Below, one piece after another: positions 17,390 to 58,413 of a DNA stretch of 64,000 nt. The stretch lies in IMG/VR virus record IMGVR_UViG_3300031551_000001, positions 1 to 64,000 of that record; one strand, written 5' to 3'. Source of the stretch: a virus. The notes under the pieces are model-generated. The model worked only from the letters and a program-made list of their open reading frames with translations. It did not search any database and was not told the origin of the DNA. The position numbers and the translations under genes are program-made. Numbering within the stretch: position 1 is the first letter of the stretch; each line of letters opens with the position of its first letter.

Positions 17390-18019
17390 TCATATACACG
17401 AAAGAATAATTTCTTTACATAATTCAACTGGTATTCTTCCCCTATCAAGAGATGACATTTTAGCTTGAACTCCAGTTTTTGAACCACGTGGTGCTGGTGT
17501 ATGATGGCAATTTTTATTTCCGTTATGACATTCGGGTCTAGGAATCCAAGTTTTTGAATTAGTAAAAATATCTGTAGGTTTAGCTCTCGTGTCCCCATAT
17601 TGACAATACCATACTGTATATCTATTAAATTTTTGTATAAATGGCATTTTACGATACATTCCTCTTGGATTTTCTATAAAAAATACCATATTAGGATTTA
17701 TTTTTAACCATTTTTTAATTAAACTAATAAAATGGATATTAACCAAATCACATTTTTTAGCATATTCAGATTTTGGATTTATTCCGTTTCTATGCGCTCT
17801 TAAACCAGCTATAGAATATGTTGTACAATCTGGAGATGCCCATATTAAATCTGGGATAAAGGGAATATCTGATATTTTTAATTTTTCAATATCTTTTACA
17901 AGATTTATTTTTGGTAATGATTCCCAGTCTACAGAAAAAACATTCATCCCATAAGAATCTGCCACATTCCCAATTGATCTATTTCCAGCGAATAATTCAA
18001 GTATATTTTTTATTTCCAT
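17390..18019 (-). CDS. C5-cytosine DNA methyltransferase
   Basis: Motif I ILELFAG, motif IV WASPDC, motif VI FIENPRG. Confidence 0.85.
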   Translation of the reverse strand: MEIKNILELFAGNRSIGNVADSYGMNVFSVDWESLPKINLVKDIEKLKISDIPFIPDLIWASPDCTTYSIAGLRAHRNGINPKSEYAKKCDLVNIHFISLIKKWLKINPNMVFFIENPRGMYRKMPFIQKFNRYTVWYCQYGDTRAKPTDIFTNSKTWIPRPECHNGNKNCHHTPAPRGSKTGVQAKMSSLDRGRIPVELCKEIILSCI

Positions 18020-20898
18020 TGTTCTATATATTCTAATAATTGTTCTTTATTCATCTTAACAGACTTCTCGTATTCTTCTACATTTTTTTGATAATGAGGA
18101 TGAAATTTAGAGCTGTTAACACCCTGATAATGCCATAAATGGTATAGCTTACCAGGAATAGTATGTATGATGTATCCTAACTCTTTGAAGCGGTGGTAAA
18201 GTTCTATGTCCTCAAGCCCCCACGACATGAAAAGTTCATTTTCCCCTCCGGCCTCTAAATACTTTAACCTGTTAAAGAGTATCATTCCTCCCAGGCTCTT
18301 AACTGACGACTGCCCAGATCTAAAACTAAAATCCTTCTTCATCATGGTAGAATCATTTTTATCCATCTTTACAAATTCATCGAATGGATATACTACGTCT
18401 GCTTTGTTTATAGATATGGTTTCTATGGCGTCTTCCAGTTGCTGTTCAGGAATTATAACGTCAGCGTCACATACTACTATTATGTCGCTTCCAGAAGCTT
18501 TAGCCATTTCATTTAACATTTTAGTCCTGTGAAAATCAGGTATGTCAAACTCCATATAAGTACATTTGTCTTTTAGATATTCGAAATATCCTTTTCCCCT
18601 TTGTAACTGTTCTCCAATAATTATATCTGAGTATGCCGTAGACTCCAAATAGTTTATTACCGTGTCTAAATTCTTCTTTCGCATAGCACCATCATAGAAC
18701 AGTGGTATAAGGAATGTAACAGATACATCTGATAAGTCTTTGTATTCTGTGTTGCATGTTACATACTCCCTTATTTCTGCTGAAGAGTATAGATTGTATT
18801 TTACTTTTAAGTTAGTCAGTATGCTTTGATCGTGCCTATGATCTATGAACCCTTTGTGGAATTCAGGATTTGGTTGGTCCATTAATATCTCACCACCATT
18901 ATATGCACACCATTCAAGCCATTCTGTCATTATCCACATTGTCCTTTCAGACTTCTTACACACAATTATACCAGCCTCCATCTGTGGTTGGTCAAAGTAT
19001 TTCTTCTCCATGCAATCCATCTTCTCAAAACACAACTTCTTAGTGTATGTAATGTTTGGATGACATCCATCAGTCAGGAGTATATCTAATCCCTGCATTT
19101 TTTGCAGTAAAAAGTCCCTGTAATCTCCGCTTATTATATCCCCACTATCCATGTAAAGTAATATGTCACCATCATCCATGGTGTTAAGTGTAGCTATGAT
19201 GAAGTAAGGCTTCCACAGCCAGTATCCACCACCCCTTTTCTTATTCAATATTGAAGCATACTTCTTGTAAAACTCTGAGGCAGTGAGGTGTGATCTTGTA
19301 ATTTGATATGTTTTATCAACCATGCCCGAAGTAGTTACCCTGTTTATGAGTTTATCTTGTTGTGGTTTATAATTATCGTCTGCATAGCAAAGGAACACTA
19401 CTTTACGCTTTTCAAACTTAACCCTGTCTTGCAGTTGTTTTTTACTTAGTGTTTTTATGTGTTTTAGTTCTTGCTTCCCCTGTTGGAAAAAAGGATTGAA
19501 TATTGTGCTTATTGATGTGCAGTGGTGATTGAGATGATATAATCCTCCTTTTGTTCTTCCTACTTTATACCCTAATCTTCTAAATCTATCATACCTTTCT
19601 GCATCTTCTGGAGCATACGCTATAAACATTTCGTTCTCTCCACCTGCAGATATAAATGATTTCTTGTTGTACCCAATGGCTCCACCCACGCTTTTATCAT
19701 CTTTACCAACAAAGTCTATCCCGGATAACACCCCCACATCCCCACACTTAACCATATCAATATATTTTCTATTCCTGGCATATACTCCGTCTCCTACTCT
19801 TAAGAAGGCTCCATTGTAAGGATAAACAAAGTCATACCCATTTCTTAGCATTTTAACCATTTCGTACAGGTCAAAAGGAGATGTCAGAACATCAGCGTCC
19901 CAGTTAACAATGTATGGTGTGTTGGCTAAACTTGTCATTCTGTTTAACATCTTTGTCCTATGGAACTCCTTGTACGGAAATCTTACGTACTTGTCTCCAT
20001 AGTCTTTGAATTTACGGGTATGCTGTTCTCCTATGATTATGTTAGTGTCGAAGCATTTCCTTAAAAAGTTAATAGATATTTTAAGGTTCTCACGCCTGTC
20101 CATATGGTCGTATCGTACAGGAATAATGAATGTTGTATCTTTCAGATCTGTTTTATAATCATCATGGCATATCCATTCCGGTTCCCAGAAGTCTTTTTCG
20201 TTATGTGTTTTGGCTAGTGGACCTGAGAATATCTTTGGAGGTCTGATGCATTTCTTACTGTTAGCCAGGAAAGCACCCCACCAAGAGAAACTGCTATTAG
20301 CCAATATATGATTCTCACACCCAGCCATAATAGCTATATCTTGCATTGGCGTTCTTTCTTCTATTATGTATTGTTTCCCCTTAAAGTGAATCTTAGCATA
20401 TTCTACATCGTCTGTGCAAATGTAAAACTTGTATTTGGGATCGTTAAAGTATTTTACTATGGCTGATAGGTAGTATTCTGGGGGGAGGTTTATGTAGTTT
20501 GGATTGTTTATGTAGTCTCCTCTCCTTATGTGAATAGCAACAGTGTTGTCTCCAAGATAATCTGCAGACTTGGGCTTAAACCATTTGCGTATATCTTCTT
20601 TAATATTTTCCCAATACTTATATGATTGAAAAGTTCCAGTTAAATTAACCACACCTACATTAATATTATCTAATAAGGCAGGGTCATAATGAAAATATTT
20701 TTCTATTATTTCTACATCAGGAGTTACGTCTTTGTAAAATTCTTCTGGTAAATTTAATTGATATCTATATTTCCAATCTGTTATAATGGCTGGTTTGGAT
20801 TTATATTTATAAGCTTGGCCAATAACACATGCGGCCTCTAGCATATTGTTAGCCAATCGACCATATGTATTTAATTTTTTGAATGTGATATATTCCAT
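18010..20898 (-). CDS. multidomain glycosyltransferase (GT11-like + GT2/GT7-like + GYWLWKP domain + GT2/GT7-like)
   Basis: GRLANNM, HIRRGDY, NSSFSWW (GT11); WDAD and GGENEMFIAYAPED; RGGGYWLWKP..YMDSG..HRHDQS; CDAD and GGENELFMSWGLED. Confidence 0.9.
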   Translation of the reverse strand: MEYITFKKLNTYGRLANNMLEAACVIGQAYKYKSKPAIITDWKYRYQLNLPEEFYKDVTPDVEIIEKYFHYDPALLDNINVGVVNLTGTFQSYKYWENIKEDIRKWFKPKSADYLGDNTVAIHIRRGDYINNPNYINLPPEYYLSAIVKYFNDPKYKFYICTDDVEYAKIHFKGKQYIIEERTPMQDIAIMAGCENHILANSSFSWWGAFLANSKKCIRPPKIFSGPLAKTHNEKDFWEPEWICHDDYKTDLKDTTFIIPVRYDHMDRRENLKISINFLRKCFDTNIIIGEQHTRKFKDYGDKYVRFPYKEFHRTKMLNRMTSLANTPYIVNWDADVLTSPFDLYEMVKMLRNGYDFVYPYNGAFLRVGDGVYARNRKYIDMVKCGDVGVLSGIDFVGKDDKSVGGAIGYNKKSFISAGGENEMFIAYAPEDAERYDRFRRLGYKVGRTKGGLYHLNHHCTSISTIFNPFFQQGKQELKHIKTLSKKQLQDRVKFEKRKVVFLCYADDNYKPQQDKLINRVTTSGMVDKTYQITRSHLTASEFYKKYASILNKKRGGGYWLWKPYFIIATLNTMDDGDILLYMDSGDIISGDYRDFLLQKMQGLDILLTDGCHPNITYTKKLCFEKMDCMEKKYFDQPQMEAGIIVCKKSERTMWIMTEWLEWCAYNGGEILMDQPNPEFHKGFIDHRHDQSILTNLKVKYNLYSSAEIREYVTCNTEYKDLSDVSVTFLIPLFYDGAMRKKNLDTVINYLESTAYSDIIIGEQLQRGKGYFEYLKDKCTYMEFDIPDFHRTKMLNEMAKASGSDIIVVCDADVIIPEQQLEDAIETISINKADVVYPFDEFVKMDKNDSTMMKKDFSFRSGQSSVKSLGGMILFNRLKYLEAGGENELFMSWGLEDIELYHRFKELGYIIHTIPGKLYHLWHYQGVNSSKFHPHYQKNVEEYEKSVKMNKEQLLEYIEQWK

Positions 20899-20919
20899 AA
20901 AATGTATAGTAGAATTATC

Positions 20920-21567
20920 CTAATCCAGTTTATTCTTAAAATATTTATGAGCTAAATGATAGTCAACATCATTAAACGCCACATCGCTGTATCCTGCCAT
21001 ATGATCTACTGGCCAAGGAATAAGTGCTAAACAATTAAATACAGGATGTACCTTCAAAGCATAGAACTCGTCAATCCCATAAGTGTATGTTGCGTTTTCA
21101 ATGATATAGTCATATAAATTATCGGCAATAATATAAGCATATGTGCCAGAAATTTGATTGGCTTTATAAACGTATGGATTGTCTGTGGGCGTTATGTCTT
21201 TGTCTGGAAATTCAAAATGTCCACCAAGATATAACATGTCAAAACCTCTGTCCACGGAATTCACTCTTTCTACGAAGTCCTCAGCTAACACTATATCATC
21301 CTCAAGAACAACAATATACTTGTATTGTTTTTCCTTAGCATGTTTGATGAGGCTTACATGAGACATTAAGCACCCTAATATTCCTTGTGCGTTACGTTCT
21401 CCATATTTCCTACTGTCTTCCGGTACTTCGAGGGTTCTACCATCTGTAGCTTCCCACCTGGTAAACGTTAGTCCAAGATTATCTAGTTTGGTTTTCATGT
21501 CGTTTAACCTATCTGTACGATGAGGAAGATTAACAACGAATATTGGTATGTCAGCTATTTTAATCAT
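20920..21567 (-). CDS. GT25-family glycosyltransferase
   Basis: VVNLPHRTDR, ATDG, GCLMSH, VLEDD, LYLG, GTYAY. Confidence 0.9.
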   Translation of the reverse strand: MIKIADIPIFVVNLPHRTDRLNDMKTKLDNLGLTFTRWEATDGRTLEVPEDSRKYGERNAQGILGCLMSHVSLIKHAKEKQYKYIVVLEDDIVLAEDFVERVNSVDRGFDMLYLGGHFEFPDKDITPTDNPYVYKANQISGTYAYIIADNLYDYIIENATYTYGIDEFYALKVHPVFNCLALIPWPVDHMAGYSDVAFNDVDYHLAHKYFKNKLD

Positions 21568-21688
21568 ATATGTGTGTTTTAAGGCTCATATGAGCGTTTG
21601 TGACAGCTTTAGATTCAAAGTTAAGGTTTTTGTTGTCTTTTATATTATATCGCCCTCAGCGTCCTCTGAGGAAGCCACAGGGTATAAA

Positions 21689-22411
21689 TTATCTTTGTTT
21701 GTTTGTGTCATATAACCATACATAATTAATATTAGGATAAAAAAAGTTCTTGCGTTCATACATAGACCTAAATCTTGCGTTATCAGTGACTAAACAATCT
21801 ACGTTAATGTGTTTGTTTCTTTTCAGGGCAGATGCTAATGAATGTCCACCAGAATTAAGACATATATACCTCTTGCATGAAGATATGTAATTACATAACT
21901 CATATATATTGTTTACCGTGATAGTATCATTTACGTATATTCTGTCACTGCATATCTTTTCTCCTACTATCTGCACTAAACCTCCCCCCCCCTGCTTATC
22001 CAAGTATTCTTGTAAAACATTCTCATCATAGTCTCCTTCTCTTTTACTTGTTTTACATGACATGTCTACGAGTGTGATATCGGATAGTTCTGGGCAAAGG
22101 ACAGGTTGATAATATATTATCGGATAATCATTTGTATAAGGTAAAAAATTTGCAATCTCCCAATTGCCAATAAAGGATCCACATACGTTCTTTGGTTCAC
22201 GTCCTATTATTTCTCCACAGTTTCCGGGTTTATCCATCTTACCTTTAACAAATGGACTTAACCCCCACACCAACTCATATACTTCATCACTGCATGGAGT
22301 CTCTGCACTTATGTACACATCGTATCCCTGTTGGTGGAATAATGATGGTAAAGTACTGTGCTGTAAGCTATCACCAAGTCCATCATGCCACGATCTAATT
22401 ATTTTGTCCAT
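21689..22411 (-). CDS. GT-B (GT9-like) glycosyltransferase
   Basis: N-terminal GLGD and C-terminal ICLNSGGHSLASAL, resembling GT9 DSGxxHLAxA. Confidence 0.6.
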   Translation of the reverse strand: MDKIIRSWHDGLGDSLQHSTLPSLFHQQGYDVYISAETPCSDEVYELVWGLSPFVKGKMDKPGNCGEIIGREPKNVCGSFIGNWEIANFLPYTNDYPIIYYQPVLCPELSDITLVDMSCKTSKREGDYDENVLQEYLDKQGGGGLVQIVGEKICSDRIYVNDTITVNNIYELCNYISSCKRYICLNSGGHSLASALKRNKHINVDCLVTDNARFRSMYERKNFFYPNINYVWLYDTNKQR

Positions 22412-22983
22412 ATCCCGTAGCTACATTGATGAGTATGAAAGTCATGTATCCCTTGTCCTGCCTCATAATATTGAACACAATCTCCGAAATGTCCTATAAA
22501 GAAGCCCATAGTAAATTCATGGTGATGAGCTTTATCTTTTCCGGCTTCTATTGGTTCAAAGAAACGAATTATTTTAGAAGCTTTTTTTGCCTTGTCAATA
22601 ATGATGTTAGGGTCTAACACGTGTTGAAGAACGTTCATTAACCACACCTCATCTACTTTAGGAAAGTCTATTTCTTCTGCTGGTTTTGTTAATAGAGTGA
22701 ATCCGGCTTTATCACATGTGTTTCGTAGTAATGATGATGGCATGGGTTCTATTATGTAGCAGTTACCGTGGTTATGACAGTAATCTAAGGCAGAAAAATC
22801 TGCTGGTCCTATCTCTATTATGTCCTTCTCCTGCAGGTCTGGATTTATTTGTAGGTAGTGGAAGTAGTTTCTGTAAGAATTTTTGTAGTGTTTTCTTCCT
22901 TCTATCTCGTCAAAGATATGATGTCTACGTTCCTCTATTTGTCCTAATTCCCATTTACTTCTTTCTATCATTTTATTTCCCAT
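22399..22983 (-). CDS. class I SAM-dependent methyltransferase
   Basis: IIEIGP, IIEP, NVLQHVLDP. Confidence 0.75.
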   Translation of the reverse strand: MGNKMIERSKWELGQIEERRHHIFDEIEGRKHYKNSYRNYFHYLQINPDLQEKDIIEIGPADFSALDYCHNHGNCYIIEPMPSSLLRNTCDKAGFTLLTKPAEEIDFPKVDEVWLMNVLQHVLDPNIIIDKAKKASKIIRFFEPIEAGKDKAHHHEFTMGFFIGHFGDCVQYYEAGQGIHDFHTHQCSYGIWTK

Positions 22984-23056
22984 TTATGATAAGCGTGTTC
23001 TTTTATTTGCCCTTCCTCCCATTGGCTTATGGGGACATCCTTAAATTCATTTTGTT

Positions 23057-23674
23057 TCATTTCTTTCTTTTTCTTAGCCATTTTGCAAGTGGATATGCGG
23101 GGTTGCAATCTGCATGATTATAATTATCACTAAAATATTCAGCAAACTCAATCATGTCCTTTTTATTAAATTGAGGTTTATTCTCTTTTATATATTGTTC
23201 AGCTTTTTCTTTTGATGAGAATATTTTATAATTATTAGAATAACGTGGCAATCTTGAAAAAAATACACTTTGCATTATATCATTATCAATATTATTTGTA
23301 TCTAAACAATAGAAAACTTGTCCATCACAAAGTTCTTTACCATCTTCTGTCTTTAAAGTTGGTTGTTTTTCTATTAATCTCGGGCCATAATCATTACCGC
23401 CGACTAACATGAAATTAATCGATTTAGTAAAATCTTTCCATTCCTTTTCTTCTAATTCGAATTTATCCTCTTCTATCTTTTCAAACCATGATGGATGTTG
23501 GTTTAATAATAATTTTATTTTGAATTTATCATCTTCCAATATACAATATCTTCTATATTTTTTATCTATAAATGGATTGTCAATTACTATATCTAAATTA
23601 TCTTTAAAGGTAATTATTGCAAATTCTTGTATACCATACCAATCAAGATTATCTGTGATTACTTTATATTTCAT
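23057..23674 (-). CDS. hypothetical phage protein
   Basis: 205-aa ORF, TEDGKEL motif. Confidence 0.65.
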   Translation of the reverse strand: MKYKVITDNLDWYGIQEFAIITFKDNLDIVIDNPFIDKKYRRYCILEDDKFKIKLLLNQHPSWFEKIEEDKFELEEKEWKDFTKSINFMLVGGNDYGPRLIEKQPTLKTEDGKELCDGQVFYCLDTNNIDNDIMQSVFFSRLPRYSNNYKIFSSKEKAEQYIKENKPQFNKKDMIEFAEYFSDNYNHADCNPAYPLAKWLRKRKK

Positions 23675-23964
23675 TGTTTATTATTTTTAATAAAAAAGAC
23701 AAATTATTTTTATAAAGATATTTAATTCGTTGTTCTCTTTTTTCTAATTCTTCTTCTGAAATTTGTTTTTCTCTTCCATCGAGATAATCATATCCATTAT
23801 AATAATTGTATAAACCATAATCATTACAAACACTACCATTCCTAATTTTAAAATGCCCAATAATTTGTCCTTCTTTATATTTTAGTGGATGTTCTAATTT
23901 GTAATTTAATTCTTTTAACTTTTCATTTTCATTTTCTAATTTTGCGTTTTTTTCATGAAGACGA

Positions 23965-24699
23965 TCAATAAGCCTTGTTTCTTCTGTTGCTTTTTTCATT
24001 ATTTTTAAGATTTAATATTTCGTTTCCGTTTATAAAGTTGCAATGATGAAATCCAAAATGTTTATTCACGTCAAAATAGAAGGGTTCTCTGTAATCATCC
24101 CCAAATTCACTACATCTGTTTTCGTAAGAAAATCTGTATGCGAGGTCTAATGGTGGAAATTTTATTTGATATTCCATACATTTTTCATAATTTATTGCCG
24201 TCAGAAAGATGTCTTCCCCCAAATACCCACATGTAATGAATTGATTGGAATATTCAAGGAACTTTCTACTTCTCAGAGAAAACCCCCCGTTGCCTATTCT
24301 GTTTTTAGAAATTGCTTTTCGTATAATATCTCGTTTATCTGGTGACTGATCTTGTATCCACTCTTCATCATCCGGCCAAGGGGCTCCAATATAATCATAC
24401 TTCAAAAACTCATCTGTCCACATATCTGGGTTCACAACATATCCATCTGACTGGATGACAAGCACATAATCATTATCTATATACTCTATTAAGTTAAGCA
24501 TAAAATTGTTGTACATCAGGACAGAGGAGAGGTGCGGAATCGCTATCTTTTCCACCCCCTCATATACTCTGTCTGTGCTTGATAAAAGAACAATCCTCCC
24601 AAAATTTATATCTTTTGATGAATATCTGAGTGCTGCTACAGCATCATCTGGACAATCGCAATTTACAGCTACAAGGGCTATTTTATCTTCCCTTTTCAT
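23965..24699 (-). CDS. DUF5672-like GT-A-fold protein
   Basis: IQSDG, FLKYDYIGAPW, IGNGGFSLRSRK, GED, FGFH. Confidence 0.85.
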   Translation of the reverse strand: MKREDKIALVAVNCDCPDDAVAALRYSSKDINFGRIVLLSSTDRVYEGVEKIAIPHLSSVLMYNNFMLNLIEYIDNDYVLVIQSDGYVVNPDMWTDEFLKYDYIGAPWPDDEEWIQDQSPDKRDIIRKAISKNRIGNGGFSLRSRKFLEYSNQFITCGYLGEDIFLTAINYEKCMEYQIKFPPLDLAYRFSYENRCSEFGDDYREPFYFDVNKHFGFHHCNFINGNEILNLKNNEKSNRRNKAY

Positions 24700-25378
24700 C
24701 TGGGTACAAATTTTTAACCAAATCACTTTGCCAAAATTCTTTAGTATCTATATTTATTAAGGTTAATTTCCCTTCCCATCCAGCACCTTGATCAATATTC
24801 CATAAATTACGAATATGTACAGGACTTAAATCACTTTTAGTTCTTGATGTTGTTGTGTGACCAATATAAATTTCATCATAATCTTTTACCTCAAAAATAG
24901 GAGAAAATAGATAAGACCAAAATAAATCTCTGTCCCATGTTAAATCATATATAGATTGCTTAGAAATATCCTTCACTAAAGAAAAACCTCCATGAACAAA
25001 CAATTTATTATCTTTTGTTATATAATAAGGTTTCGCATTCTCAAGAAATTTCTCATGTTTTTGTTCATAATTTGAATCTTGTACTCTATAATAAGCATTT
25101 AAAGTGGCTTCTCCTCCTTGGGACGTCCATATTCTTGGTTTATTATAAGTTTTGAAATAATCCAGCAACCACCGATCATGATTTCCTAAAATATAAATTA
25201 GATTTTTAAACTTCATAAGTTCTTCAAAACATTCAGGAACTTGGCTCCATCCATCAGCTACATCCCCCAAGCTTATTAATAAATCATTATCGTAATCTAT
25301 CCCTGATTTTTCAATAACCTGCATTAGCGCTTTATATGCACCATGAATATCTCCCAAACAAAATCTTTTTATTTCCAT
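24683..25378 (-). CDS. calcineurin-like metallophosphoesterase (lambda NinI-like)
   Basis: GDIHG, GDVAD, GNHD, FVHGG, GHT. Confidence 0.9.
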   Translation of the reverse strand: MEIKRFCLGDIHGAYKALMQVIEKSGIDYDNDLLISLGDVADGWSQVPECFEELMKFKNLIYILGNHDRWLLDYFKTYNKPRIWTSQGGEATLNAYYRVQDSNYEQKHEKFLENAKPYYITKDNKLFVHGGFSLVKDISKQSIYDLTWDRDLFWSYLFSPIFEVKDYDEIYIGHTTTSRTKSDLSPVHIRNLWNIDQGAGWEGKLTLINIDTKEFWQSDLVKNLYPDEKGR

Positions 25379-26355
25379 ATTGTAGGTAAATTTTTATATA
25401 CCTCTATGTTCGTAAATTCTTTCGATTCTTCAATTTCCTGAGTATTTGCCCATTCAACCATTTTGTTAATTCCGTCCCATATCTGTGTTTTATTTATAGA
25501 AGGAAAATGCTTCTTGATCTTATCAATAGAACAATATGCATTATGCACTTCATTTCTTGCTTTAACATGCATTATTTGTTGATGAGACCCCATAGCACGC
25601 TTTACCATTTCTGCTATATCGTTTACAGAATATGTCTTTTCTGCTCCTATGTTAAAAGTTTTATTATACATTTCAGGTTTAAAAGCAGATTGAGCTATTT
25701 TAGGGGCTATGTCCCCTATAAATGAAAATGCTCTTGTCTGAGTGCCGTCTCCGAACACGGTCAATGGCTTATCAGAAAGAATTTGATTAATAAAAATACC
25801 AAGAACATTTCTATATTTATCGTTGAGTCGTTGTCTTGGCCCGTAAATATTGTATGGGCGAAAGATAATGTAATCAAGACCAAACATTTTATTGGCTGCT
25901 ATTATATCAAGTTCTGTGGCATATTTAGCTATACCGTATGGGTCTATGGGTTGTGGTTGTGTTTCTTCTGTAAACGGTGGTTCTGCATCTCCATAACAAG
26001 CTATTGAACTAAAAAAGATAAGTTTTGCTTCATGTTTTATGCATTCATTGATAATATTCATAGAACCTACTACATTGTTGGTATAATTGAAATTGCGTAT
26101 AAAATGAGAGAGCCCTTCGGCAGCATAAGCAGCCAAATGAAATACATATTCGAATTTATAGTCTACGAACATCCAGCTCATTTGCCTTTTGTCATTGACT
26201 GTCATCTGGTAAAAATGAGACTTCCTGTTTATATTGTTCGTGCTTCCCCCGCTTAAATTATCCACGACATAAACATCATGTTTGAGATTTATGAGTTCGT
26301 CAACTATATGAGAACCAATAAACCCTAAACCTCCGGTTACAAGTATATTACTCAT
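25369..26355 (-). CDS. NAD-dependent nucleotide-sugar epimerase/dehydratase
   Basis: TGGLGFIG, HLAA, catalytic YGIAK, NIYGP. Confidence 0.93.
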   Translation of the reverse strand: MSNILVTGGLGFIGSHIVDELINLKHDVYVVDNLSGGSTNNINRKSHFYQMTVNDKRQMSWMFVDYKFEYVFHLAAYAAEGLSHFIRNFNYTNNVVGSMNIINECIKHEAKLIFFSSIACYGDAEPPFTEETQPQPIDPYGIAKYATELDIIAANKMFGLDYIIFRPYNIYGPRQRLNDKYRNVLGIFINQILSDKPLTVFGDGTQTRAFSFIGDIAPKIAQSAFKPEMYNKTFNIGAEKTYSVNDIAEMVKRAMGSHQQIMHVKARNEVHNAYCSIDKIKKHFPSINKTQIWDGINKMVEWANTQEIEESKEFTNIEVYKNLPTIWK

Positions 26356-29614: not shown

Positions 29615-29968
29615 TTAGTAATAATAATTTTGATTAAATGTTGTGTCTGGATAAAAAGAAATGGTATCTACCGCAATAATCTTCCACACAGAATCTGGCA
29701 TTACAAAAAGAGAATCATATAATTCATGAAAAGAAGTATCTACCTCAATACTATCAAGAATAACATTCTCTACATCATTTTCAAATGATGCTCTTTCAAT
29801 AAATGCCAAGGCATCATTTTTATTAGTAAATATTGCTTCGTGATTACATTCATTTATTGTATATGTATCATAATTCCATTTAATTATTCTATCAAATTCA
29901 TCGAGTTCACAAAACGGAATTCCTTGATGTGTTATAACTAAACACCACGTTACTATATATTTCCACAT
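29615..29968 (-). CDS. small protein rich in D-S/T-x sequons
   Basis: Short hydrophobic N-terminus; DSI, DSL, DSV, DTI, DTT in the last ~47 aa. Confidence 0.65.
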   Translation of the reverse strand: MWKYIVTWCLVITHQGIPFCELDEFDRIIKWNYDTYTINECNHEAIFTNKNDALAFIERASFENDVENVILDSIEVDTSFHELYDSLFVMPDSVWKIIAVDTISFYPDTTFNQNYYY

Positions 29969-29969
29969 A

Positions 29970-30236
29970 TCAAACTCCTTTCTTCCCAAAATATGGTCTC
30001 CAAAAAGGCATGTCCCTGGGCGGTATCATTATGGTCTTTTTGTTTCTCATGTCGTGTGCCGGACGGGGGTTTCTGTGTTTTATAATAAATCTTCCGAATC
30101 TGGAAATATGTACTTCAATTTTATTCTCAAGATTCTTTTTGATCTCACCAAAGGTAACATTGACAATAAGGTCTACCGTTTCTTTGTCAACTCCGGTTTG
30201 TTTTGCTACGTTTTTTACTAATTTTAATGTGTTCAT
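29970..30236 (-). CDS. HU/IHF-family DNA-binding protein
   Basis: LVKNVAKQTG, VHISRFGRF, RNPR..D......IPPR..P.WRP. Confidence 0.9.
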   Translation of the reverse strand: MNTLKLVKNVAKQTGVDKETVDLIVNVTFGEIKKNLENKIEVHISRFGRFIIKHRNPRPAHDMRNKKTIMIPPRDMPFWRPYFGKKGV

Positions 30237-50504: not shown

Positions 50505-50532
50505 AGGGAGGGTTAATTCCCTCCCTATTTTT
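50505..50532 (+). terminator. intrinsic terminator
   Basis: AGGGAGGG-TTAATT-CCCTCCCT followed by ATTTTT. Confidence 0.85.
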
Positions 50533-51646: not shown

Positions 51647-51678
51647 GAGTTTCCGTTTCCGTTAGTTCTCATAGTGCG

Positions 51679-51708
51679 CCCTTCACAGTTTATTCTGTGA
51701 GGGGTTTT
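51679..51708 (+). terminator. intrinsic terminator preceded by an anti-leader tract
   Basis: CCCTTCACAG/CTGTGAGGGG stem followed by TTTT. Confidence 0.75.
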
Positions 51709-51760: not shown

Positions 51761-52606
51761 ATGACACTTTACGAAGCCCTTGATAATTTTGAAGATCAGT
51801 ATTTGGAGGCGGTTGAAAGCGGAAGTCTTAGAGAAATAGCAGCACTTGAATCAGACTGGATAAAAATTGATAATGAATATACTCTTTATAGGCTTGCTTT
51901 AATAGGGGGAGATGGAACATCCGCACAGGAACATTTAGATGTAATAGAATCAATTCTTTCTTCAAATGATTTAACTGTTGACGAAGGCAGTTTAGCCCCC
52001 GTTTCTATTGGTCTTAATCTTACTCCAGACAACATCAGCATTCAATGCGACGCCTCCGGTGTACCAAAGGATGGAGCCTATGATTATGCTATCGGAACTT
52101 GTTATGTATTTGTTGGAACAGCAGATGATACGGAAAATTGGACATTTACCATTAATTCAGTAACAAATTGTACAGCGGCAATTCAAAATGATGATGAAGT
52201 AAAAGTTAATAGTATAACTGATGAGTCTGGGAATGTTGTTGTGAAGGGAACAAGAACGGGATATAGTAATGTTTATCTTACACTTCGGGTATTTAAAATA
52301 AGAGATGGTCTTGCTAATTATAATCTGGATAAAGAAGCAGATAAAGACGCTGCTTTTACTAAAACATTTAGCGCAGGAGAAAAACTGGAGGCTATAGATT
52401 TTGAATATGTTAGCGGGACTCCATACATTAAAGTTGGATTGACTTTAGGAGGTACACAGGTTAGTCTTGCTGAATTGGCAGTACCTACAGACGATTATTT
52501 ATCTCTGACTGTTAACAAGATATTTTCTGCGGAAACTATTGTTTATGTAACTATAACCGGCGGGGTTGTAAATGTGAATTGGGATTACAGAACTTTATAT
52601 TTTTAG
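51761..52606 (+). CDS. putative virion structural protein
   Basis: Acidic, beta-rich C-terminal two thirds; lies in the tail module. Confidence 0.55.
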   Translation: MTLYEALDNFEDQYLEAVESGSLREIAALESDWIKIDNEYTLYRLALIGGDGTSAQEHLDVIESILSSNDLTVDEGSLAPVSIGLNLTPDNISIQCDASGVPKDGAYDYAIGTCYVFVGTADDTENWTFTINSVTNCTAAIQNDDEVKVNSITDESGNVVVKGTRTGYSNVYLTLRVFKIRDGLANYNLDKEADKDAAFTKTFSAGEKLEAIDFEYVSGTPYIKVGLTLGGTQVSLAELAVPTDDYLSLTVNKIFSAETIVYVTITGGVVNVNWDYRTLYF

Positions 52607-52609
52607 ATC

Positions 52610-54055
52610 ATGAAACGAATTATTATATTTTTATCATTGTTTTTGTTGGTAATTTCTTGTAAGGCACAAAGCCCCGGCATATTCACATTTGTTATTGTGA
52701 GGGATTCTGCTGAAATACCAACTGTAAGTATAGAAACCCTTCTTAGTATAACTGGTTGGACTAAAGTAACTGAAGATTTTGTACAAGATGGTGATACTTT
52801 GGAAAATCTTGTTGATAGTATTGATATTGTGACAATGATAGGAAATATTGGTGGGGATGTATTTTTTACCGATACAGTGTCAATTATTGCCACAAAAGCG
52901 GACACCATTTCTAAGATAGCGACAAAATATGATATTGATTCATTATATTCTTCTCTTTTAATTTATGCTAGGGATAGTGATTGGGTCTCTACTACGCATG
53001 ATACTATATTTTTTGATGATGATGGAGATTATTTTATTACTATGGGAGAGAGCGTAAATACACTTTATTTTTATTTTGATGGTGAAACGGTAACTATGTC
53101 TGATGCTTCTGGCGATTATAGTGGTACAATGATAGAATCTGATTATATATTGATAAATGATTCAATTTGTAATCGAACGGAAGGGCCTGAAGAAATGAAT
53201 TGTGTTAGTATTGATGATCTTTATACTGTAGTTTCTTCTGGTGGTAGTGGCTCTGTTGATTTTTCAGGTATACCGGACGGAAGAGTTATTTTCGCAAAAG
53301 AAGATACGGCATCATATAGTTCAAATTTTAATTTTTATGATAGTACATTACATTTATCTGTTGATACTGAACAGGAAGATACTGCTTTATTTATAGAAAA
53401 TAATGGTTCCGGGGGTATGGATGTTGGAATATCAATTCTCAACACCGGCTCAAAAGGGGTTTATATTAGTCAAACCGCAGGTGTTGGAGTTGGATTAGAT
53501 ATGGATATTGCTGATGGGACAAGTGCGATTGATATAGATTTAATGGGACAAAATGTTTATGGGGTAAGGGTTAATGCACAAAAAACAGGAGAGGCATTTA
53601 TAACGCAAGATGATGGAGATGATGTTTTTGTAATTGATTCTTCCGGTGGTGTTCACATGGAAGATTCGTTATGGTTAAATGTTTTAGAGGATGCACAACA
53701 TGATGAACAATGGTTAGGATTAAGCCACACAAATGCAGTATTTGCTGATTCACTTACTGACGCTGGGTTTGGACTTGCAGATGAATTGCTTCCAATTGAT
53801 GAATATTTAAATAATTTTCAGTATAATGAAAAAACGGGGTTTAATGAGCTTTTATGGAAATACTGGAATGGTAAAGAATATATCTCTGAATATTCTATTA
53901 AAGGAAGGCCAAGTGTCACTATTCAAAAACTTCAATGGGGTATAGAACATTCGTTTCGATATATACAACAATTAGAAGATGAAAATATGCGAATGAAAGC
54001 AAGAATATATGATATAGAAGAACGATTAAAAACATTAGAATTTAAATTAGAATGA
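52610..54055 (+). CDS. signal-peptide-bearing fibre-like protein with dense O-glycosylation sequons
   Basis: MKRIIIFLSLFLLVISCKA|Q; 13 D-(S/T)-(A/I/L/V/T) sites; C-terminal coiled coil YIQQLEDENMRMKARI..LE resembling a tail-fibre chaperone end. Confidence 0.7.
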   Translation: MKRIIIFLSLFLLVISCKAQSPGIFTFVIVRDSAEIPTVSIETLLSITGWTKVTEDFVQDGDTLENLVDSIDIVTMIGNIGGDVFFTDTVSIIATKADTISKIATKYDIDSLYSSLLIYARDSDWVSTTHDTIFFDDDGDYFITMGESVNTLYFYFDGETVTMSDASGDYSGTMIESDYILINDSICNRTEGPEEMNCVSIDDLYTVVSSGGSGSVDFSGIPDGRVIFAKEDTASYSSNFNFYDSTLHLSVDTEQEDTALFIENNGSGGMDVGISILNTGSKGVYISQTAGVGVGLDMDIADGTSAIDIDLMGQNVYGVRVNAQKTGEAFITQDDGDDVFVIDSSGGVHMEDSLWLNVLEDAQHDEQWLGLSHTNAVFADSLTDAGFGLADELLPIDEYLNNFQYNEKTGFNELLWKYWNGKEYISEYSIKGRPSVTIQKLQWGIEHSFRYIQQLEDENMRMKARIYDIEERLKTLEFKLE

Positions 54056-56337
54056 TAAAATATTATATTATATTGACATTTTTGGTCTTGACAAATTTTG
54101 TCAATGCACAATTAACGGCAGGTCTTACTGCTTATTGGGGGTTAGATGAAGAATCCGGGACTATTGTTGATTCTGTAGGTTCAAATGATGGTACTGTTAC
54201 GGGGGCTACCTATGAAGCAACAGGGAAACTAAATACATGCCTTTCTTTTGATGGTAATGGAGATTATATTACATTTCCTGATGTAGCAGATTTACAGGGT
54301 TATGGAGATGATTTCGGAATGGGTGCATGGATATATCCCACACAATACTCAGGGGATGATTACAGGTATATTTTTGGTGGAGAAGAATATGCTTTTGGTA
54401 TGGCAATAAATGCTATTTCTGAGGCACTTGTAATGAGGGTTATAGGCGCGTATTCATCTCCGTCAAGTTCATTTACTATTCCTTTAAATCAATGGTCTTT
54501 TGTATATTGTCAGATTGATTATTCTGAAACAACGAATGATGTTAGTTTTTATTGTAATGGTACTATGAATACGGTTACATTTAATCATGATGCAACTAGC
54601 GGTTCATCTACTAATTTAATAGGGTGTAGAGAAGTTGGTCATGATTATTTTATAGGTAGAATTGACGATTCTTTTATTACTAAAACTTTAAAAACAGAAG
54701 CACAATTAGATTCTATTTATAATTTAGGTGCTGGTAAAATATATCCTTGGGATTTTAGTGAAGGAACGGGGTTGGAATCTGGTTTTATTAGAAGTGAAAT
54801 AGCACAATCTATGTGGAGAATTGAAGTTCAGAAAATTGCATTTCGTATTCCTTATGAGTCAGAAGGCGAAGAAGAAGAAACAGAAATATCAACTTATCAC
54901 ATGGACGGTACTTGTCCCGAAAGTACACATCGTTGGGATGATTATGATTGTGCAGAAAATGATTTTGATAATCTTTCGTCAAGTTTGGCAATATCAGACA
55001 CGAACGATTTTGCAGAAGTAATTTATATTGATCCTGACGCTCCTCCTGAAGGAGATGGTACTTATGGGTCTCCTTATGATTCATGGGAAGATATAGGAAC
55101 AGGAACAAATAATTATGCTTATGTACAAAAGCGAGGAACTACTTGTGAAATTACAAGCACATTCGCCCCTACCGCTAACGGATTTATGATGGGGGCTTAT
55201 GGAGAAGGAGAGCGACCAATTATTCATAAAACAAATGCAGGAGATATTATTGATATTGATTACAAAGTGTGTATTCGAGATCTCTCTATAAGAGGTTATG
55301 CTGCTGTTGCGGATGCGGGGGAATTAATATTTTTTCATGGTGCTGCTGACGAATCATTTGTATACAATTGTGAATTAAGTTATGCTTATATTGGTCTTTT
55401 TTTATGGGCAGATAAATGCAGATTGATTAATAATGAAATATCCTATATGTATTTGGATGGAATATGGACAGGAGAAGCTTCTTATATTGAAATATCTCAT
55501 AATAATATACATCACATTAATAGAGCCTACGATACAAATCCTTCTGAAAGTGTTGCCGGAGGAGACGGAATTCAATTTGCTTATAATTGGTCGCAAGGGT
55601 GGATACACGATAATATAATAGACAGGTCAACGGAAGGAAATAAATTTTGTCTAGCTATAATCCCTGATGTAACAAAACGACCTTATAACCAAAAGTTTAT
55701 TATTGAATTTAATTCATTCACGGGCCCTCCTTATGATGAAGGAGGAGGGGCCTCCGTTATGCTAGATAGTGCTAAAAATTCAATCATCCAATATAATCAT
55801 TTTAAAGGAGTAGAAGGTACAGGCTCTAATGGGCGTGGAATATGGCTTGAATATGCATATAATGATACTTTGATGGGAAATACTTTTGAAGGTTATTGGA
55901 TAGGTATACAAGGTGCTACACCAAATATGAATATTATTTTAAACAACAATACATTTTATGATAATGATGGATATATTGCTGTTAATATTGATGGAAAATT
56001 TTATAATAATATATTTTCTGTTCCTACCGGAGCAAGTTCTTTTTCAAACATTAATTTAGACGATGAAAGTAATAATCTTTTTACAATAACTGTTCCTGTT
56101 GGATGGAGTGGGTCATTTCATGGGAATCCTCATTATGTAGATTCTTTAAACAGTGATTTCACATTGCAAAGTAATTCAGATGCTATTGATGCGGGGATAG
56201 AGCTTGATTACTATAATTATGATATTACAAAAAAAGAAATAACCGGAGATACAGATTGCGGAGCTTATGAACATAATTTATGGTGGCTTATTATGCTTTT
56301 ACCGTTCTTATTTTTCAATTATAAAAGAAAAAGATAA
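54052..56337 (+). CDS. LamG-like plus right-handed beta-helix protein with signal peptide and C-terminal hydrophobic tail
   Basis: MIKYYIILTFLVLTNFVNA|Q; AYWGLDE..G..SFDGNGDYI (LamG); parallel beta-helix repeats; DFTLQSNSDAIDAG..DCGAYE; LWWLIMLLPFLFFNYKRKR. Confidence 0.8.
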   Translation: MIKYYIILTFLVLTNFVNAQLTAGLTAYWGLDEESGTIVDSVGSNDGTVTGATYEATGKLNTCLSFDGNGDYITFPDVADLQGYGDDFGMGAWIYPTQYSGDDYRYIFGGEEYAFGMAINAISEALVMRVIGAYSSPSSSFTIPLNQWSFVYCQIDYSETTNDVSFYCNGTMNTVTFNHDATSGSSTNLIGCREVGHDYFIGRIDDSFITKTLKTEAQLDSIYNLGAGKIYPWDFSEGTGLESGFIRSEIAQSMWRIEVQKIAFRIPYESEGEEEETEISTYHMDGTCPESTHRWDDYDCAENDFDNLSSSLAISDTNDFAEVIYIDPDAPPEGDGTYGSPYDSWEDIGTGTNNYAYVQKRGTTCEITSTFAPTANGFMMGAYGEGERPIIHKTNAGDIIDIDYKVCIRDLSIRGYAAVADAGELIFFHGAADESFVYNCELSYAYIGLFLWADKCRLINNEISYMYLDGIWTGEASYIEISHNNIHHINRAYDTNPSESVAGGDGIQFAYNWSQGWIHDNIIDRSTEGNKFCLAIIPDVTKRPYNQKFIIEFNSFTGPPYDEGGGASVMLDSAKNSIIQYNHFKGVEGTGSNGRGIWLEYAYNDTLMGNTFEGYWIGIQGATPNMNIILNNNTFYDNDGYIAVNIDGKFYNNIFSVPTGASSFSNINLDDESNNLFTITVPVGWSGSFHGNPHYVDSLNSDFTLQSNSDAIDAGIELDYYNYDITKKEITGDTDCGAYEHNLWWLIMLLPFLFFNYKRKR

Positions 56338-56342
56338 AAATT

Positions 56343-57098
56343 ATGAACAATGGTGATATATTTGGATTTGTAAACGCTGTTTTAAGAAAGGAAAAAGAGG
56401 GATCTGTTTTAACTCCTGCACAGTTTAATCTTTTTCTTAAAACTTCTATGTGGGAGAAAATCAATTCAAATTTTAAGAGATTTGAAGAATCTCAGATTAT
56501 CACAGATTCGTTGGGTGAATTAAGGGTTGACGCAGAAACCCTTGCTATTGACGCGGACGGAGAGGGAGATTTGAGTGGGCTTAGTGAAACTTATTTGCAT
56601 GTAATACCAAATCCAACTTATATATATTCCGGTTCTGTAAGGGAAATTGATATTGTAACAGCGGGGGAATATGCTCATTATTCTGCGAGTGCATCAATGG
56701 CTCCAGATGCAACATGGCCTATTGCTAAAATAGTAGGGGATACAATATATGTTAATCCGCTTGTAAGCGTTAATATATCTTTTTCTTATTTTAAGGAACC
56801 GGATGAATCTTATTATGATTATTACGTAGACGCAAATGATGAGCAGGTTTATCTGGAGGTGGGGGCATCACACACTCTTTTGGCCGGAGAGGAATATGTC
56901 GATAAGGATGATGGTACGGTAAGGGGCGAAGATTATGAAATTACGGCAGAAATAAATCATTCTGTAGAATTACCATTTCCAGACAATGAAAGAATAGATG
57001 TAGCGTATAAGATTTTGCAAAAAATGGGTATTCCTGTTGACAAGATAGTTGCCACTGAATATGGTTCGTTCAGAGAACAAAAAGAAGAAATGTTATGA
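56343..57098 (+). CDS. putative tail ring/adaptor protein
   Basis: N..LRKE..G..LTPAQFN N-terminus typical of crAss-like ring proteins. Confidence 0.7.
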   Translation: MNNGDIFGFVNAVLRKEKEGSVLTPAQFNLFLKTSMWEKINSNFKRFEESQIITDSLGELRVDAETLAIDADGEGDLSGLSETYLHVIPNPTYIYSGSVREIDIVTAGEYAHYSASASMAPDATWPIAKIVGDTIYVNPLVSVNISFSYFKEPDESYYDYYVDANDEQVYLEVGASHTLLAGEEYVDKDDGTVRGEDYEITAEINHSVELPFPDNERIDVAYKILQKMGIPVDKIVATEYGSFREQKEEML

Positions 57099-57700
57099 CA
57101 AGAGAAAGTTATATAGAAATGTTGAGAGATAGAATCAAAAGACTTGATTCTTCCGCTAGAGTTCGCCCACAATTGATAAATGCAGCTCTTGATGCCGTAT
57201 GGCAGAATATGGCATTTGAAAACATGGGATCTCTTGGTTCGGATGTAAATTTTTGTACCAAGCTATACGAAGCTGTTGATGTTGAGGAAGGCGCGGATGG
57301 AACGTATTATTCAGAGTTACCAAATGCTATAATTAATTTACCAAGGGCAGCAAGCGGTGTTGGAAGAATTAATCAGGTTAATAGCAGGGATTATGATTTT
57401 TCTCCTGTTACGGAAAGAAATTTCAGGCTTCTTACTTCTCTTGATGTATATGATATAGGTAATAAAATTTATTATTATGTTACTAAGGATTATGTTTATT
57501 ATGGTGAATCTATGACGGCAGCAATAGCGGGAGTGGGCGTGGACATGAGACTTGTAATACCATTTAAAGATTATGATTTGGATGAGAATATACCAATTCC
57601 TTCTGGACAGGCAGAGAGATTTCTTGGTGATGCGATGAATTTTTTAATGGGCACTACTCCTATTAATCAAAATAACACAAATAAAGAAACAGCACCATGA
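57095..57700 (+). CDS. putative tail ring protein
   Basis: Position and size; YSELP..I.LP, D.NIPIP motifs. Confidence 0.6.
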   Translation: MTRESYIEMLRDRIKRLDSSARVRPQLINAALDAVWQNMAFENMGSLGSDVNFCTKLYEAVDVEEGADGTYYSELPNAIINLPRAASGVGRINQVNSRDYDFSPVTERNFRLLTSLDVYDIGNKIYYYVTKDYVYYGESMTAAIAGVGVDMRLVIPFKDYDLDENIPIPSGQAERFLGDAMNFLMGTTPINQNNTNKETAP

Positions 57701-58413
57701 GTAAGACAAGTGCATTAATAACTATAAACGATATTACTGAAGGCATCATGGCGATGACGGACGTTCCTGAAGAATATGGGTTTCGTGTTGAGCAATTGGT
57801 AATTAATGCTGTTAAAGAGCTTAATTTACTTGTTCTTGATGAAGGAAGGGTAGTTGAAAAGAAAACAATGGACAGCAATTATCTTCTTGCTATGCCAAGT
57901 GATCTTGTACGCCTTAATGGAGCATGTATACCTGTTAATGGAGAATTATGGCCGCTTACCGTAGAGAGAAAGATAGTACCCACCACCTCATTGACAGATG
58001 GGGCAGTGACGCTTGATAGCGATGACGGAGAAGGGGTAGATTTAGTAAAAGAAGGAACCGGGTTTGCATCGAGAGGTGGAGTTAACTTACATGGATATGT
58101 ATTCCCTGATTATGCAAAAAGAAGATTTGTATTTAGAAATGTGAATAGATCGGAAGTTCTTTTGGATTATAAAACGAGTGGAATTGAATTAACAGGAATC
58201 ACATACATACCAACTCATGCAAAATCTGCCATTAATGCTTATGTTCGTCTTTATCTTGAAATGAATAAATTAAAACCAAATTTTGAAATTGTATATGGTT
58301 TCCGTGATGAATATGAAAGACAAAAAGATATTTGCAGGGGAGTAAAATTTAATATGTATGAATTTCTGGATGCTATGTATAGAACAATGATACCAACTAT
58401 CGGAAGATTATGA
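57697..58413 (+). CDS. putative tail ring protein
   Basis: MPSDLV, VLLDY..G, IP..A..AI.AY pattern. Confidence 0.6.
   Translation: MSKTSALITINDITEGIMAMTDVPEEYGFRVEQLVINAVKELNLLVLDEGRVVEKKTMDSNYLLAMPSDLVRLNGACIPVNGELWPLTVERKIVPTTSLTDGAVTLDSDDGEGVDLVKEGTGFASRGGVNLHGYVFPDYAKRRFVFRNVNRSEVLLDYKTSGIELTGITYIPTHAKSAINAYVRLYLEMNKLKPNFEIVYGFRDEYERQKDICRGVKFNMYEFLDAMYRTMIPTIGRL

Follow-up and report, generated by a model that had tools for sequence, protein, structure and literature searches.

Two tail-operon proteins of a probable Bacteroidota phage begin with Sec-type signal peptides, and one is enriched in a host O-glycosylation sequon

Why should genes in the tail operon of a phage encode proteins that begin with the secretion signal of the host? 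The question is raised by two adjacent genes in the window (the whole stretch of DNA analyzed here, 64,000 nucleotides), which comprises positions 1 to 64,000 of IMG/VR record IMGVR_UViG_3300031551_000001, a phage contig of 81,885 bp. The first gene (52610..54055, plus strand) encodes a sequon-rich, fiber-like protein of 481 amino acids (aa) (P0001), and the second (54052..56337, plus strand) encodes a 761-aa protein with a LamG domain and a right-handed beta-helix (P0004). A host secretion signal on both proteins and an excess of O-glycosylation sequons on one of them point to probable maturation outside the cytoplasm. We propose that they are host-exported, glycosylated recognition or depolymerase gear that joins phage particles at lysis, and we give this overall model a probability of about 0.5.

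Both N-termini, MKRIIIFLSLFLLVISCKA|Q in the 481-aa protein (SCKA|Q) and MIKYYIILTFLVLTNFVNA|Q in the 761-aa protein, show by inspection a basic n-region, a hydrophobic core, small residues at positions -3 and -1, and Gln at +1. Among the open reading frames (ORFs) longer than 125 aa in the whole-genome list, only these two have such an N-terminus. Sec-type signal peptides ending in A|Q had been proposed for both proteins in the preliminary description of this DNA, and the coordinates, lengths, and N-termini were all reproduced. The signal peptide of the 481-aa protein occupies residues 1-19 (52610..52666, plus strand), with predicted type I cleavage at A19|Q20 and an alternative lipoprotein cleavage at S16|C17; that of the 761-aa protein also occupies residues 1-19 (54052..54108, plus strand), with predicted cleavage at VNA|Q. 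The lipobox pattern is [LVI][ASTVI][GAS]C at the end of the h-region. The V-I-S-C of the 481-aa protein fits this pattern, in agreement with the possible lipobox Cys reported earlier, and the 761-aa protein has no lipobox Cys. Gln directly after the cleavage site is known as the Q-rule of Bacteroidetes (PMC5837995; PMC10653852), a feature described as specific to signal peptidase I substrates in this phylum (PMC5837995).

The same kind of N-terminus is conserved across the family of the 481-aa protein. An exhaustive phmmer search of 1.84 billion representatives returned 33 proteins at E<=1e-3, of which 14 reached E<=1e-10; they are 159 to 977 aa long, and nearly all align solely to residues ~345-477 of the 481-aa protein. 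A signal-peptide-like start was present in 25 of 34 members (here and below, counts of 34 include the 80%-identical P0002), and most of the other nine appear truncated at the N-terminus or have a non-Met start. Eighteen of the 25 fit the strict pattern [AGSCTV]x[AGSC]Q, six more fit L/I-x-[GSA]-Q, and one fits neither; Gln follows the signal peptide in 24. P0002 has a signal peptide identical to that of the 481-aa protein, and P0003 has a similar -SCKAQ-. A lipobox-like Cys occurs in merely five of the 25, indicating that it is not a family trait. Conservation of Q-rule signal peptides across the family supports the proposed export, and both proteins are probably carried across the inner membrane.

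Sites of the form D-(S/T)-(A/I/L/V/M/T), hereafter sequons, were counted and compared with expectations from composition-preserving shuffles (2000 per window ORF). The 481-aa protein has 13 sequons (residues 32, 62, 69, 88, 98, 110, 131, 184, 232, 244, 257, 352, and 380) among 16 D-S/T dipeptides, compared with 3.34 +/- 1.81 expected, and none of the 2000 shuffles reached 13. It was the one ORF with p<0.05 among the 42 tested. The 1121-aa muzzle protein contains 14 D-S/T dipeptides and three sequons (4.7 expected), so the earlier counts for both proteins (13 of 16 and three of 14) were reproduced exactly. Summed over the other 73 ORFs of the genome that are 100 aa or longer, 43 sequons were counted, with 48.6 expected. 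Amino-acid composition, the explanation named beforehand as grounds for refutation, is thus ruled out for sequon density in the 481-aa protein. The highest sequon density in the genome was found elsewhere, in a 124-aa ORF of the early region (29615-29989, minus strand) with five sites, or 40 per 1000 residues, and a short hydrophobic N-terminal stretch past an internal Met; this ORF may encode another small exported, glycosylated protein.

Sequon excess extends to the family and is specific to the motif. The 33 representatives contain 258 sequons, with 75.0 expected (z 22), or 3.4 times chance, and sequon density reaches 27 per 1000 residues. Counts for control motifs in the same 33 proteins were 79 against 118.6 expected for D-[ST]-other, 27 against 46 for E-[ST]-h, 76 against 72 for N-[ST]-h, 83 against 76.5 for the reversed motif, 78 against 76 for [ST]-D-h, and 75 against 75 for D-x-[ST]-h. 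When the conserved last 150 residues were removed, leaving parts that are variable and mutually unrelated, 157 sequons remained (58.2 expected), and D-[ST]-[FYW] occurred 14 times (16.3 expected). Observed over expected frequencies of the residue after D-[ST] were highest for V (4.8x), L (4.6x), I (3.5x), A (2.7x), and T (2.2x), followed by S (1.5x), F (1.4x, not significant), M (0.9x), W (0.4x), and Y (0.3x). Preference for A and T with exclusion of Y and W is not what a structural habit of Asp-Ser followed by any hydrophobic residue would give. Selection for the Bacteroidota O-glycosylation sequon, as proposed earlier, is therefore supported by a motif-specific excess in both the 481-aa protein and its family.

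These preferences resemble those of known glycoproteins. According to a 2025 review on Bacteroidota O-glycosylation, substrates are non-cytoplasmic and carry D-(S/T)-(L/I/V/T/A/S/M); glycoproteomes rank the third position as L, I, V, T, A, S, M, with G, F, and C occasional, and Asp is nearly obligatory (PMC12871550). Engineered motifs are glycosylated, the signal functions across species, and non-cytoplasmic proteins alone are modified, according to the same text (PMC12871550). The third-position preference of the 481-aa family matches this pattern; unlike these substrates, the window proteins are phage-encoded, and the word "phage" is absent from the main text of the review (PMC12871550). Given export in a Bacteroidota host, glycosylation would follow from what is established about this system. 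Judging from its sequons, the 481-aa protein is probably glycosylated by the O-glycosylation system of the host.

The same protein could be read as an ordinary cytoplasmic tail fiber or tailspike, with N-termini that are unused or that export a minor fraction, and with the excess of D-S/T-hydrophobic as a habit of its fold. Tailed-phage particles are assembled in the cytoplasm, as such a fiber would be. Foldseek returned no match to the model of the 481-aa protein at E<=0.001, and its weak top rows are trimeric fibers, from phages (HylP at E 0.02, T4 gp34) and from reovirus (sigma1), in keeping with this reading. Two of the 13 sequons fall at conserved positions of the C-terminal module, where they could have a structural role; they are conserved in 32 and 30 of 33 proteins, and variation stays within the motif (DSL, DSV, DSI, DTL, DST, DTI, DSM). 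A fold habit does not sit well with an excess that is limited to the exact sequon, absent with F, Y, or W at the third position, with E or N at the first, and in the reversed motif, and that recurs in non-homologous variable regions. Nor does an unused N-terminus account for a Gln in 24 of 25 members at the position that is the signature of signal peptidase I substrates in Bacteroidetes. We consider a cytoplasmic fiber decidedly unlikely.

A second phage shows a similar pattern. The family member P0009 (977 aa) is encoded by a complete 52,427-bp IMG/VR phage (G001) that is unrelated to the window phage and has a Mu-like portal, Mu F, a Clp-type protease, tail genes, and a tape measure. Inside its structural module, a fiber-like protein with the C-terminal module is followed by a signal-peptide beta-helix protein of 754 aa. 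The 754-aa and 761-aa proteins are not similar in sequence, so the recurring pair is analogous, not orthologous. In G001, the ten ORFs that combine a signal-peptide-like N-terminus with a length of 100 aa or more, one of them a LamG protein, contain 44 sequons (13.4 expected; none of 1000 shuffles as high), whereas the other 48 contain 37 (35.8 expected), which also speaks against a cytoplasmic fiber with a fold-related excess. Two groups of small signal-peptide proteins in G001 were also observed (L008 6737-9944 and L010 2000-3746, both minus strand): five in a row, one with LamG, lie between the tail genes and the lysis cassette, and two more, of 143 aa (lipoprotein-like) and 200 aa, have five and four sequons, with ~0.5 expected.

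The preliminary description had suggested that the glycan on the two proteins may be remodeled by a phage glycosyltransferase island. Such an island is present at 18010..26355 (minus strand), with sugar-nucleotide genes, and is given here as context only. It encodes a 962-aa fusion of GT11 (a fucosyltransferase family), GT2, and GT7C, a GT25 protein, a DUF5672 protein, a metallophosphatase, and an NAD-dependent epimerase/dehydratase. Its ORFs have no signal peptides, so the products are presumably cytoplasmic; in principle they could act on undecaprenyl-linked glycans, and no tie to the two proteins was found. Co-occurrence of sequon-rich signal-peptide genes with such islands was examined in one other complete phage, G001, where no glycosyltransferase was detected among 57 ORFs at E<=1e-3 and PF00535 was absent in a six-frame search. 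The trait is thus independent of such an island. The proposed model works without it, and a role for the island of the window phage is unsupported. Mycobacteriophages offer a comparison, because their virion proteins are glycosylated by phage-encoded glycosyltransferases. They share with the window phage glycans on structural proteins (here predicted) and a glycosyltransferase island; their glycosylation is cytoplasmic and driven by phage enzymes, whereas the motif and signal peptides here point to a periplasmic en-bloc system of the host.

The part of the 481-aa protein that is shared by the whole family is a C-terminal module of ~120 aa (53612..54052, plus strand), which consists of a beta-rich portion (~residues 335-433) and a terminal coiled-coil helix (434-480). 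AlphaFold2 was confident solely for residues 330-481; its model has beta strands between 319 and 427, and the helix at 434-480 has a predicted local distance difference test (pLDDT) score >90. The coiled coil described earlier was thus recovered, whereas its label as "fiber-chaperone-like" was not, since no S74 domain was detectable. PF13884 was found in none of the 33 members (E<=0.01) and not in the window protein; residues 335-481 contain no "SD" dipeptide and hence no catalytic SDxxxK; and sequence searches of the PDB gave nothing meaningful and no S74 match for the module. Alignment of the module to the S74 fold with VIA-align gave a best Z of 4.7, a value dominated by the long helix and obtained with a monomer model of a probably oligomeric domain. 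The sole S74 lead was a language-model match at rank 7 with a score of 0.86. Like the S74 chaperones of K1F endosialidase and T5 pb1, the module is C-terminal on a fiber-like protein, is conserved across unrelated fibers, and ends in a helix; it differs in having no Pfam match, PDB sequence match, or catalytic motif.

No match to the 481-aa protein was found in Pfam, PHROG, NCBIfam, or the GenBank phage collection, and the 33 family members matched no Pfam family of note. Ten members that were looked up are unnamed or "hypothetical" and lie on metagenomic contigs of at most 69 kb. Searches of viral contigs with single proteins gave nothing, and those with sub-family alignments gave nothing or irrelevant weak N-terminal matches (L004-L006); a first metagenome scan and two genome-contig scans found no further contexts. 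By these searches, the family and its C-terminal module, with 33 representatives and no Pfam match, are new and unannotated.

A lipobox-like Cys in some members brings to mind a lysis or envelope-spanning protein similar to a unimolecular spanin, with a lipid at the N-terminus inserted in the outer membrane, an anchor or coiled coil at the other end near the inner membrane, and a function in the final step of lysis. Late expression and the five of 25 members with the Cys, some of which are also anchored at the C-terminus (P0003 and P0025), are compatible with such a role. However, the C-terminus of the 481-aa protein is a soluble coiled coil, with no transmembrane domain or anchor, and most members have no Cys. 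Spanins are also unlike proteins of 159-977 aa with large variable beta-rich parts, as found in this family, and the genome has its own lysis cassette at 71454-72556. A spanin-like function is very improbable.

The 761-aa protein has a more readily recognized architecture, with a signal peptide, a LamG domain, an acidic linker, a right-handed beta-helix, a weak choice-of-anchor Q-like cap, and a C-terminal tail. As had been described, LamG and beta-helix domains are present, with Pfam matches above gathering score. The LamG (concanavalin-like lectin) domain covers residues 67-217 (54250..54702, plus strand; PF13385, 53.4 bits, E 4.2e-14) and has homologues in P0006 and P0007. The beta-helix region covers residues 285-741 (54904..56274, plus strand; PF13229, 35.6 bits; PF05048, 33.6 bits). 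The match to choice-of-anchor Q (NF041518) at residues 702-741 scored 14.3 bits (cut-off 25, E 0.035), compared with 48.6 bits for P0005, the bacterial relative described below. The hydrophobic-plus-basic tail noted earlier, HNLWWLIMLLPFLFFNYKRKR (56275..56334, plus strand), was also present; it has a hydrophobic run of 13 residues followed by KRKR and reads LWWLIMLLPFLFF-NY-KRKR. The tail looks like a membrane anchor or a sorting signal; at 13 residues, the run is short for a membrane helix, and it resembles a sorting signal more. No known sorting model matched it, and the sorting domain of the type IX secretion system (T9SS; TIGR04183/PF18962) was found in neither window protein. In the GenBank phage collection, the 761-aa protein had merely an 11%-coverage match to a Serratia phage pectin lyase, and its AlphaFold2 model was unusable (pLDDT 34).

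The closest relative of the beta-helix is bacterial. P0005 (1043 aa; locus L003) is 61% identical to residues 285-740 of the 761-aa protein over its first beta-helix, and it likewise has a signal peptide, ending in HA|Q, and a choice-of-anchor Q cap. It has no LamG domain and continues into a cadherin domain, a second beta-helix, and a T9SS type A sorting domain (PF18962, precomputed; TIGR04183, 22.9 bits, cut-off 23), whereas the phage protein ends in the hydrophobic run and KRKR. As read from translations, the locus encodes oxidoreductases, glycosyltransferases, a membrane protein resembling a polymerase, an initiating sugar transferase, and another protein whose C-terminus is of T9SS type, which indicates a surface-polysaccharide locus of a T9SS-bearing (Bacteroidota) organism. 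Sequons in these T9SS-type proteins are at chance level (seven in P0005, 4.2 expected; five in the 1177-aa neighbor, 4.8 expected). Judging from these similarities, the beta-helix is of bacterial origin, from a protein with a T9SS sorting domain, a relationship newly reported here; the phage kept the signal peptide of the P0005 lineage and swapped the distal part for a short anchor-like tail.

Contigs from four runs covered the sequence patchily, with low depth over 53356-53539 and 54276-54827. Salt marsh metagenome contigs of other runs join across 53291-53690 and 54116-54871, with one contig bridging each stretch; the first stretch corresponds to the central part of the 481-aa protein and the second to the LamG portion of the 761-aa protein. 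Together with the patterns of P0002 and P0005, the joins are weak hints of cassette exchange.

Signal-peptide proteins on virions have a possible precedent in the Cellulophaga phages phi18:3 and phi46:3, which are ~72-kb flavobacterial podophages. In phi18:3 (Pachyviridae; KC821620), gp085-087 have Q-rule signal peptides and are noted in GenBank as "structural protein" with experimental tandem mass spectrometry (MS/MS) proteomics. Predicted cleavage sites in the Cellulophaga phage proteins are GYS|Q, VSA|Q, and LNA|Q, and relatives of the gp085-087 genes are annotated as pectate lyase. Five consecutive Q-rule signal-peptide proteins occur in phi46:3 (KC821622) as gp079-083 (L012 5344-13946); the phi18:3 set lies at L013 7001-12693. 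Like the window pair, these proteins are large, of fiber or pectate-lyase type, and combine a Sec signal peptide with Gln. Their genes adjoin lysis genes upstream of terminase, whereas those in the window lie between capsid and tail genes, and they have no C-terminal coiled coil or anchor. By analogy with them, the two window proteins may end up on virions, a tentative assignment.

The model that we favor would proceed in four steps. Host Sec would carry both proteins over the inner membrane, and signal peptidase I would cut before Gln20; alternatively, the 481-aa protein would be lipidated at Cys17. The general O-glycosylation system of the host would then load the 481-aa protein in the periplasm at up to 13 sites. 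The 481-aa protein would be fiber-like and probably oligomeric, with the C-terminal module and coiled coil serving to organize or tether it, and the 761-aa protein would be a lectin plus beta-helix that binds or cleaves glycans and is held at the membrane by its hydrophobic-basic tail. Finally, by analogy alone, this surface recognition and depolymerase gear would meet the cytoplasmically built particle at lysis, when the envelope gives way. Anchors could be reconciled with a virion fate if the C-terminal module cleaved itself once folded, as S74 chaperones do, although this is speculation.

Several findings weigh against this model. The case as a whole consists of sequence statistics, and tailed-phage assembly is, as stated above, cytoplasmic. 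The five sites reported earlier in the 761-aa protein (among 10 D-S/T dipeptides) were counted correctly, but they are at chance level (3.05 expected, p 0.19) and give no enrichment. Residues 19-215 of the 481-aa protein had pLDDT <50, leaving the term "fiber" without structural backing. Twelve of the 34 family members end in a full hydrophobic helix with Lys/Arg in place of the coiled coil, and the 761-aa protein has its anchor-like tail; unless cleaved off, C-terminal anchors point to the envelope and away from the virion. A site of attachment to the tail was found for neither protein. The Cellulophaga proteins have no detectable sequence similarity to the two window proteins, and they are poor in sequons: observed over expected numbers are 1/3.7, 1/3.1, and 1/3.0 for the phi18:3 signal-peptide proteins, and pooled gp079-083 of phi46:3 have three sequons with 15.6 expected (none of 2000 shuffles as low). 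Since MS/MS-annotated signal-peptide proteins are sequon-poor, sequon-rich ones may have a different fate, for example to remain in the envelope. On the other hand, a departure from chance in both directions among exported phage fibers suggests exposure to a glycosylation machinery.

These points lead to the alternative that the two proteins are exported and glycosylated yet stay in the envelope, held by the coiled coil, a lipid, or an anchor, where they mask, trim, or destroy the polysaccharide receptor from within. In that position they would exclude superinfection, stop progeny from re-adsorbing to debris, or ease release. The anchors and anchor-like tail just described fit such a role, as do the sequon-poor virion proteins of Cellulophaga phages and the nearest beta-helix homologue, a bacterial surface protein in what its translations indicate is a polysaccharide-synthesis locus. 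Porphyromonas gingivalis phages also encode Q-rule proteins that are presumably host-modifying, as reported by Matrishin et al. (2023) (PMC10367356). Against residence in the envelope, the genes are embedded in the tail operon, have no separate promoter or terminator, and have a composition like that of their neighbors, no other fiber-like, spike-like, or receptor-binding candidate was recognized among the structural genes, and the same gene pair recurs in the structural module of a second phage. We regard envelope residence as unlikely overall, though a serious rival to the model of gear that joins particles at lysis.

Known systems share some of these features with the favored model. The available part of Matrishin et al. 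describes the function of the P. gingivalis phage proteins as unknown, possibly host-modifying, and takes the Q-rule as an adaptation to host secretion, as for the window pair; that part contains no sequon analysis and no tail-operon fiber or enzyme proteins (PMC10367356). Bdellovibrio mosaic adhesive trimer (MAT) fibers, as described by Caulton et al. (2024), are exported, resemble phage tail fibers, and have a signal peptide, variable tips, and a C-terminal folding module or cap (PMC10769870). They differ in being cellular, in having the conserved domain at the N-terminus, and in that 13 of 21 end in S74 with SDxxxK, which the window module does not have (PMC10769870). No description of Sec-exported or host-O-glycosylated tailed-phage fibers was found in the open-access literature searched.

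A wider hypothesis, more tentative than the virion assignment itself, is that Bacteroidota tailed phages send fibers and depolymerases through Sec, with periplasmic folding on the C-terminal module, which would be tethered to the membrane in some relatives, a dense coat of host O-glycan, and docking at lysis, and that sequons rise in phages such as this one and fall in Cellulophaga phages. The elements reported here for the first time are the protein family with its C-terminal module, the agreement with glycoproteomes at the level of single residues, a replicate free of glycosyltransferases, the bacterial origin of the beta-helix, and the contrast with the sequon-depleted Cellulophaga proteins. 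If the proteins are exported and glycosylated, the phage uses host Sec with the Q-rule and the phylum-specific O-glycosylation on tail-operon proteins. If they are also on particles, there is an extracytoplasmic step in tailed-phage assembly, and host glycans would be present on the recognition gear of many Bacteroidota phages, crAss-like relatives included, with consequences for host-range prediction, for bacterial and animal immune recognition of phage, and for production in surrogate hosts. An absent signal peptide has been used to mark phage, as opposed to bacterial, targets of diversity-generating retroelements (Benler et al., 2018); with the proteins on particles, pipelines that count a signal peptide against a structural assignment would err for Bacteroidota.

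The two genes belong to a structural region that runs on the plus strand from 42.4 kb. It begins with the terminase large subunit, the portal, and a 469-aa putative capsid protein, followed by two genes, the 481-aa and 761-aa pair, three small genes, and the 1121-aa muzzle-like protein; past the window, the genome encodes large proteins of cargo-like type and has a lysis cassette that includes a CHAP endolysin. Terminase and portal were assigned with PHROGs (phrog_6681, E 1e-35; phrog_6547, E 2e-44) and are distant homologues of those of phi18:3 and phi46:3, with 22% (E 2e-20) and 23% (E 2e-23) identity, respectively, to Cellulophaga phage phi46:3 (Pachyviridae). The muzzle-like protein had a weak match, below cut-off, to a crAss muzzle C-domain (PF25729, E 1.3e-4). 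The 469-aa protein is called major capsid protein (MCP) by position; it has 58 homologues, many on 67-80 kb contigs, and no match in the GenBank phage collection, and the sole match in an alignment search of viral contigs (L001) was a near-identical fragment that stops before both genes. The labels "capsid" and "ring" that were given earlier to genes on either side of the pair rest on synteny alone. Judging from the terminase, portal, and muzzle homologues and the same gene order, the phage is distant kin of crAss-like phages and Pachyviridae.

A Bacteroidota host, as assumed from the beginning, agrees with the T9SS sorting domain on the nearest bacterial beta-helix homologue and with the distant relationship of portal and terminase to Cellulophaga phages; together with the Q-rule, these features indicate a probable host in this phylum. 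No tRNA genes, which were sought for host inference, were found.

The 481-aa and 761-aa genes overlap by 4 nt, the preceding gene ends 3 nt upstream, and the next begins 5 nt downstream. From 51761 to 61775, genes overlap or are at most 5 nt apart, and no intergenic terminator-like hairpin was found in this interval; G+C content of both genes is that of their neighbors. Tight junctions with no hairpin between them indicate that both genes are members of the tail operon and not an inserted cassette. Strong terminator-like hairpins were observed at 50505-50526 and 51678-51705 (plus strand), with stems of 8 and 11 bp, after the putative capsid gene and after the next gene. These two hairpins may separate a strongly expressed head unit from the tail operon, which begins at 51761.

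Other features of the genome were recorded in passing. The lysis cassette at 71454-72556 (L007 9454-10556, plus strand) encodes a membrane protein of 52 aa, a protein of 98 aa, one of 62 aa whose N-terminus is lipoprotein-like, and the CHAP endolysin of 145 aa. Also outside the window, at 73619-74887 of the genome (L007 11619-12887, plus strand), is a gene for a 422-aa TnpB/IS605 OrfB-like protein (OrfB_IS605, Cas12f1-like TNB, HTH_OrfB_IS605). The early region includes genes for an Imm5-like putative immunity protein (5193-5705, minus strand) and an AAA ATPase (1174-2106, minus strand).

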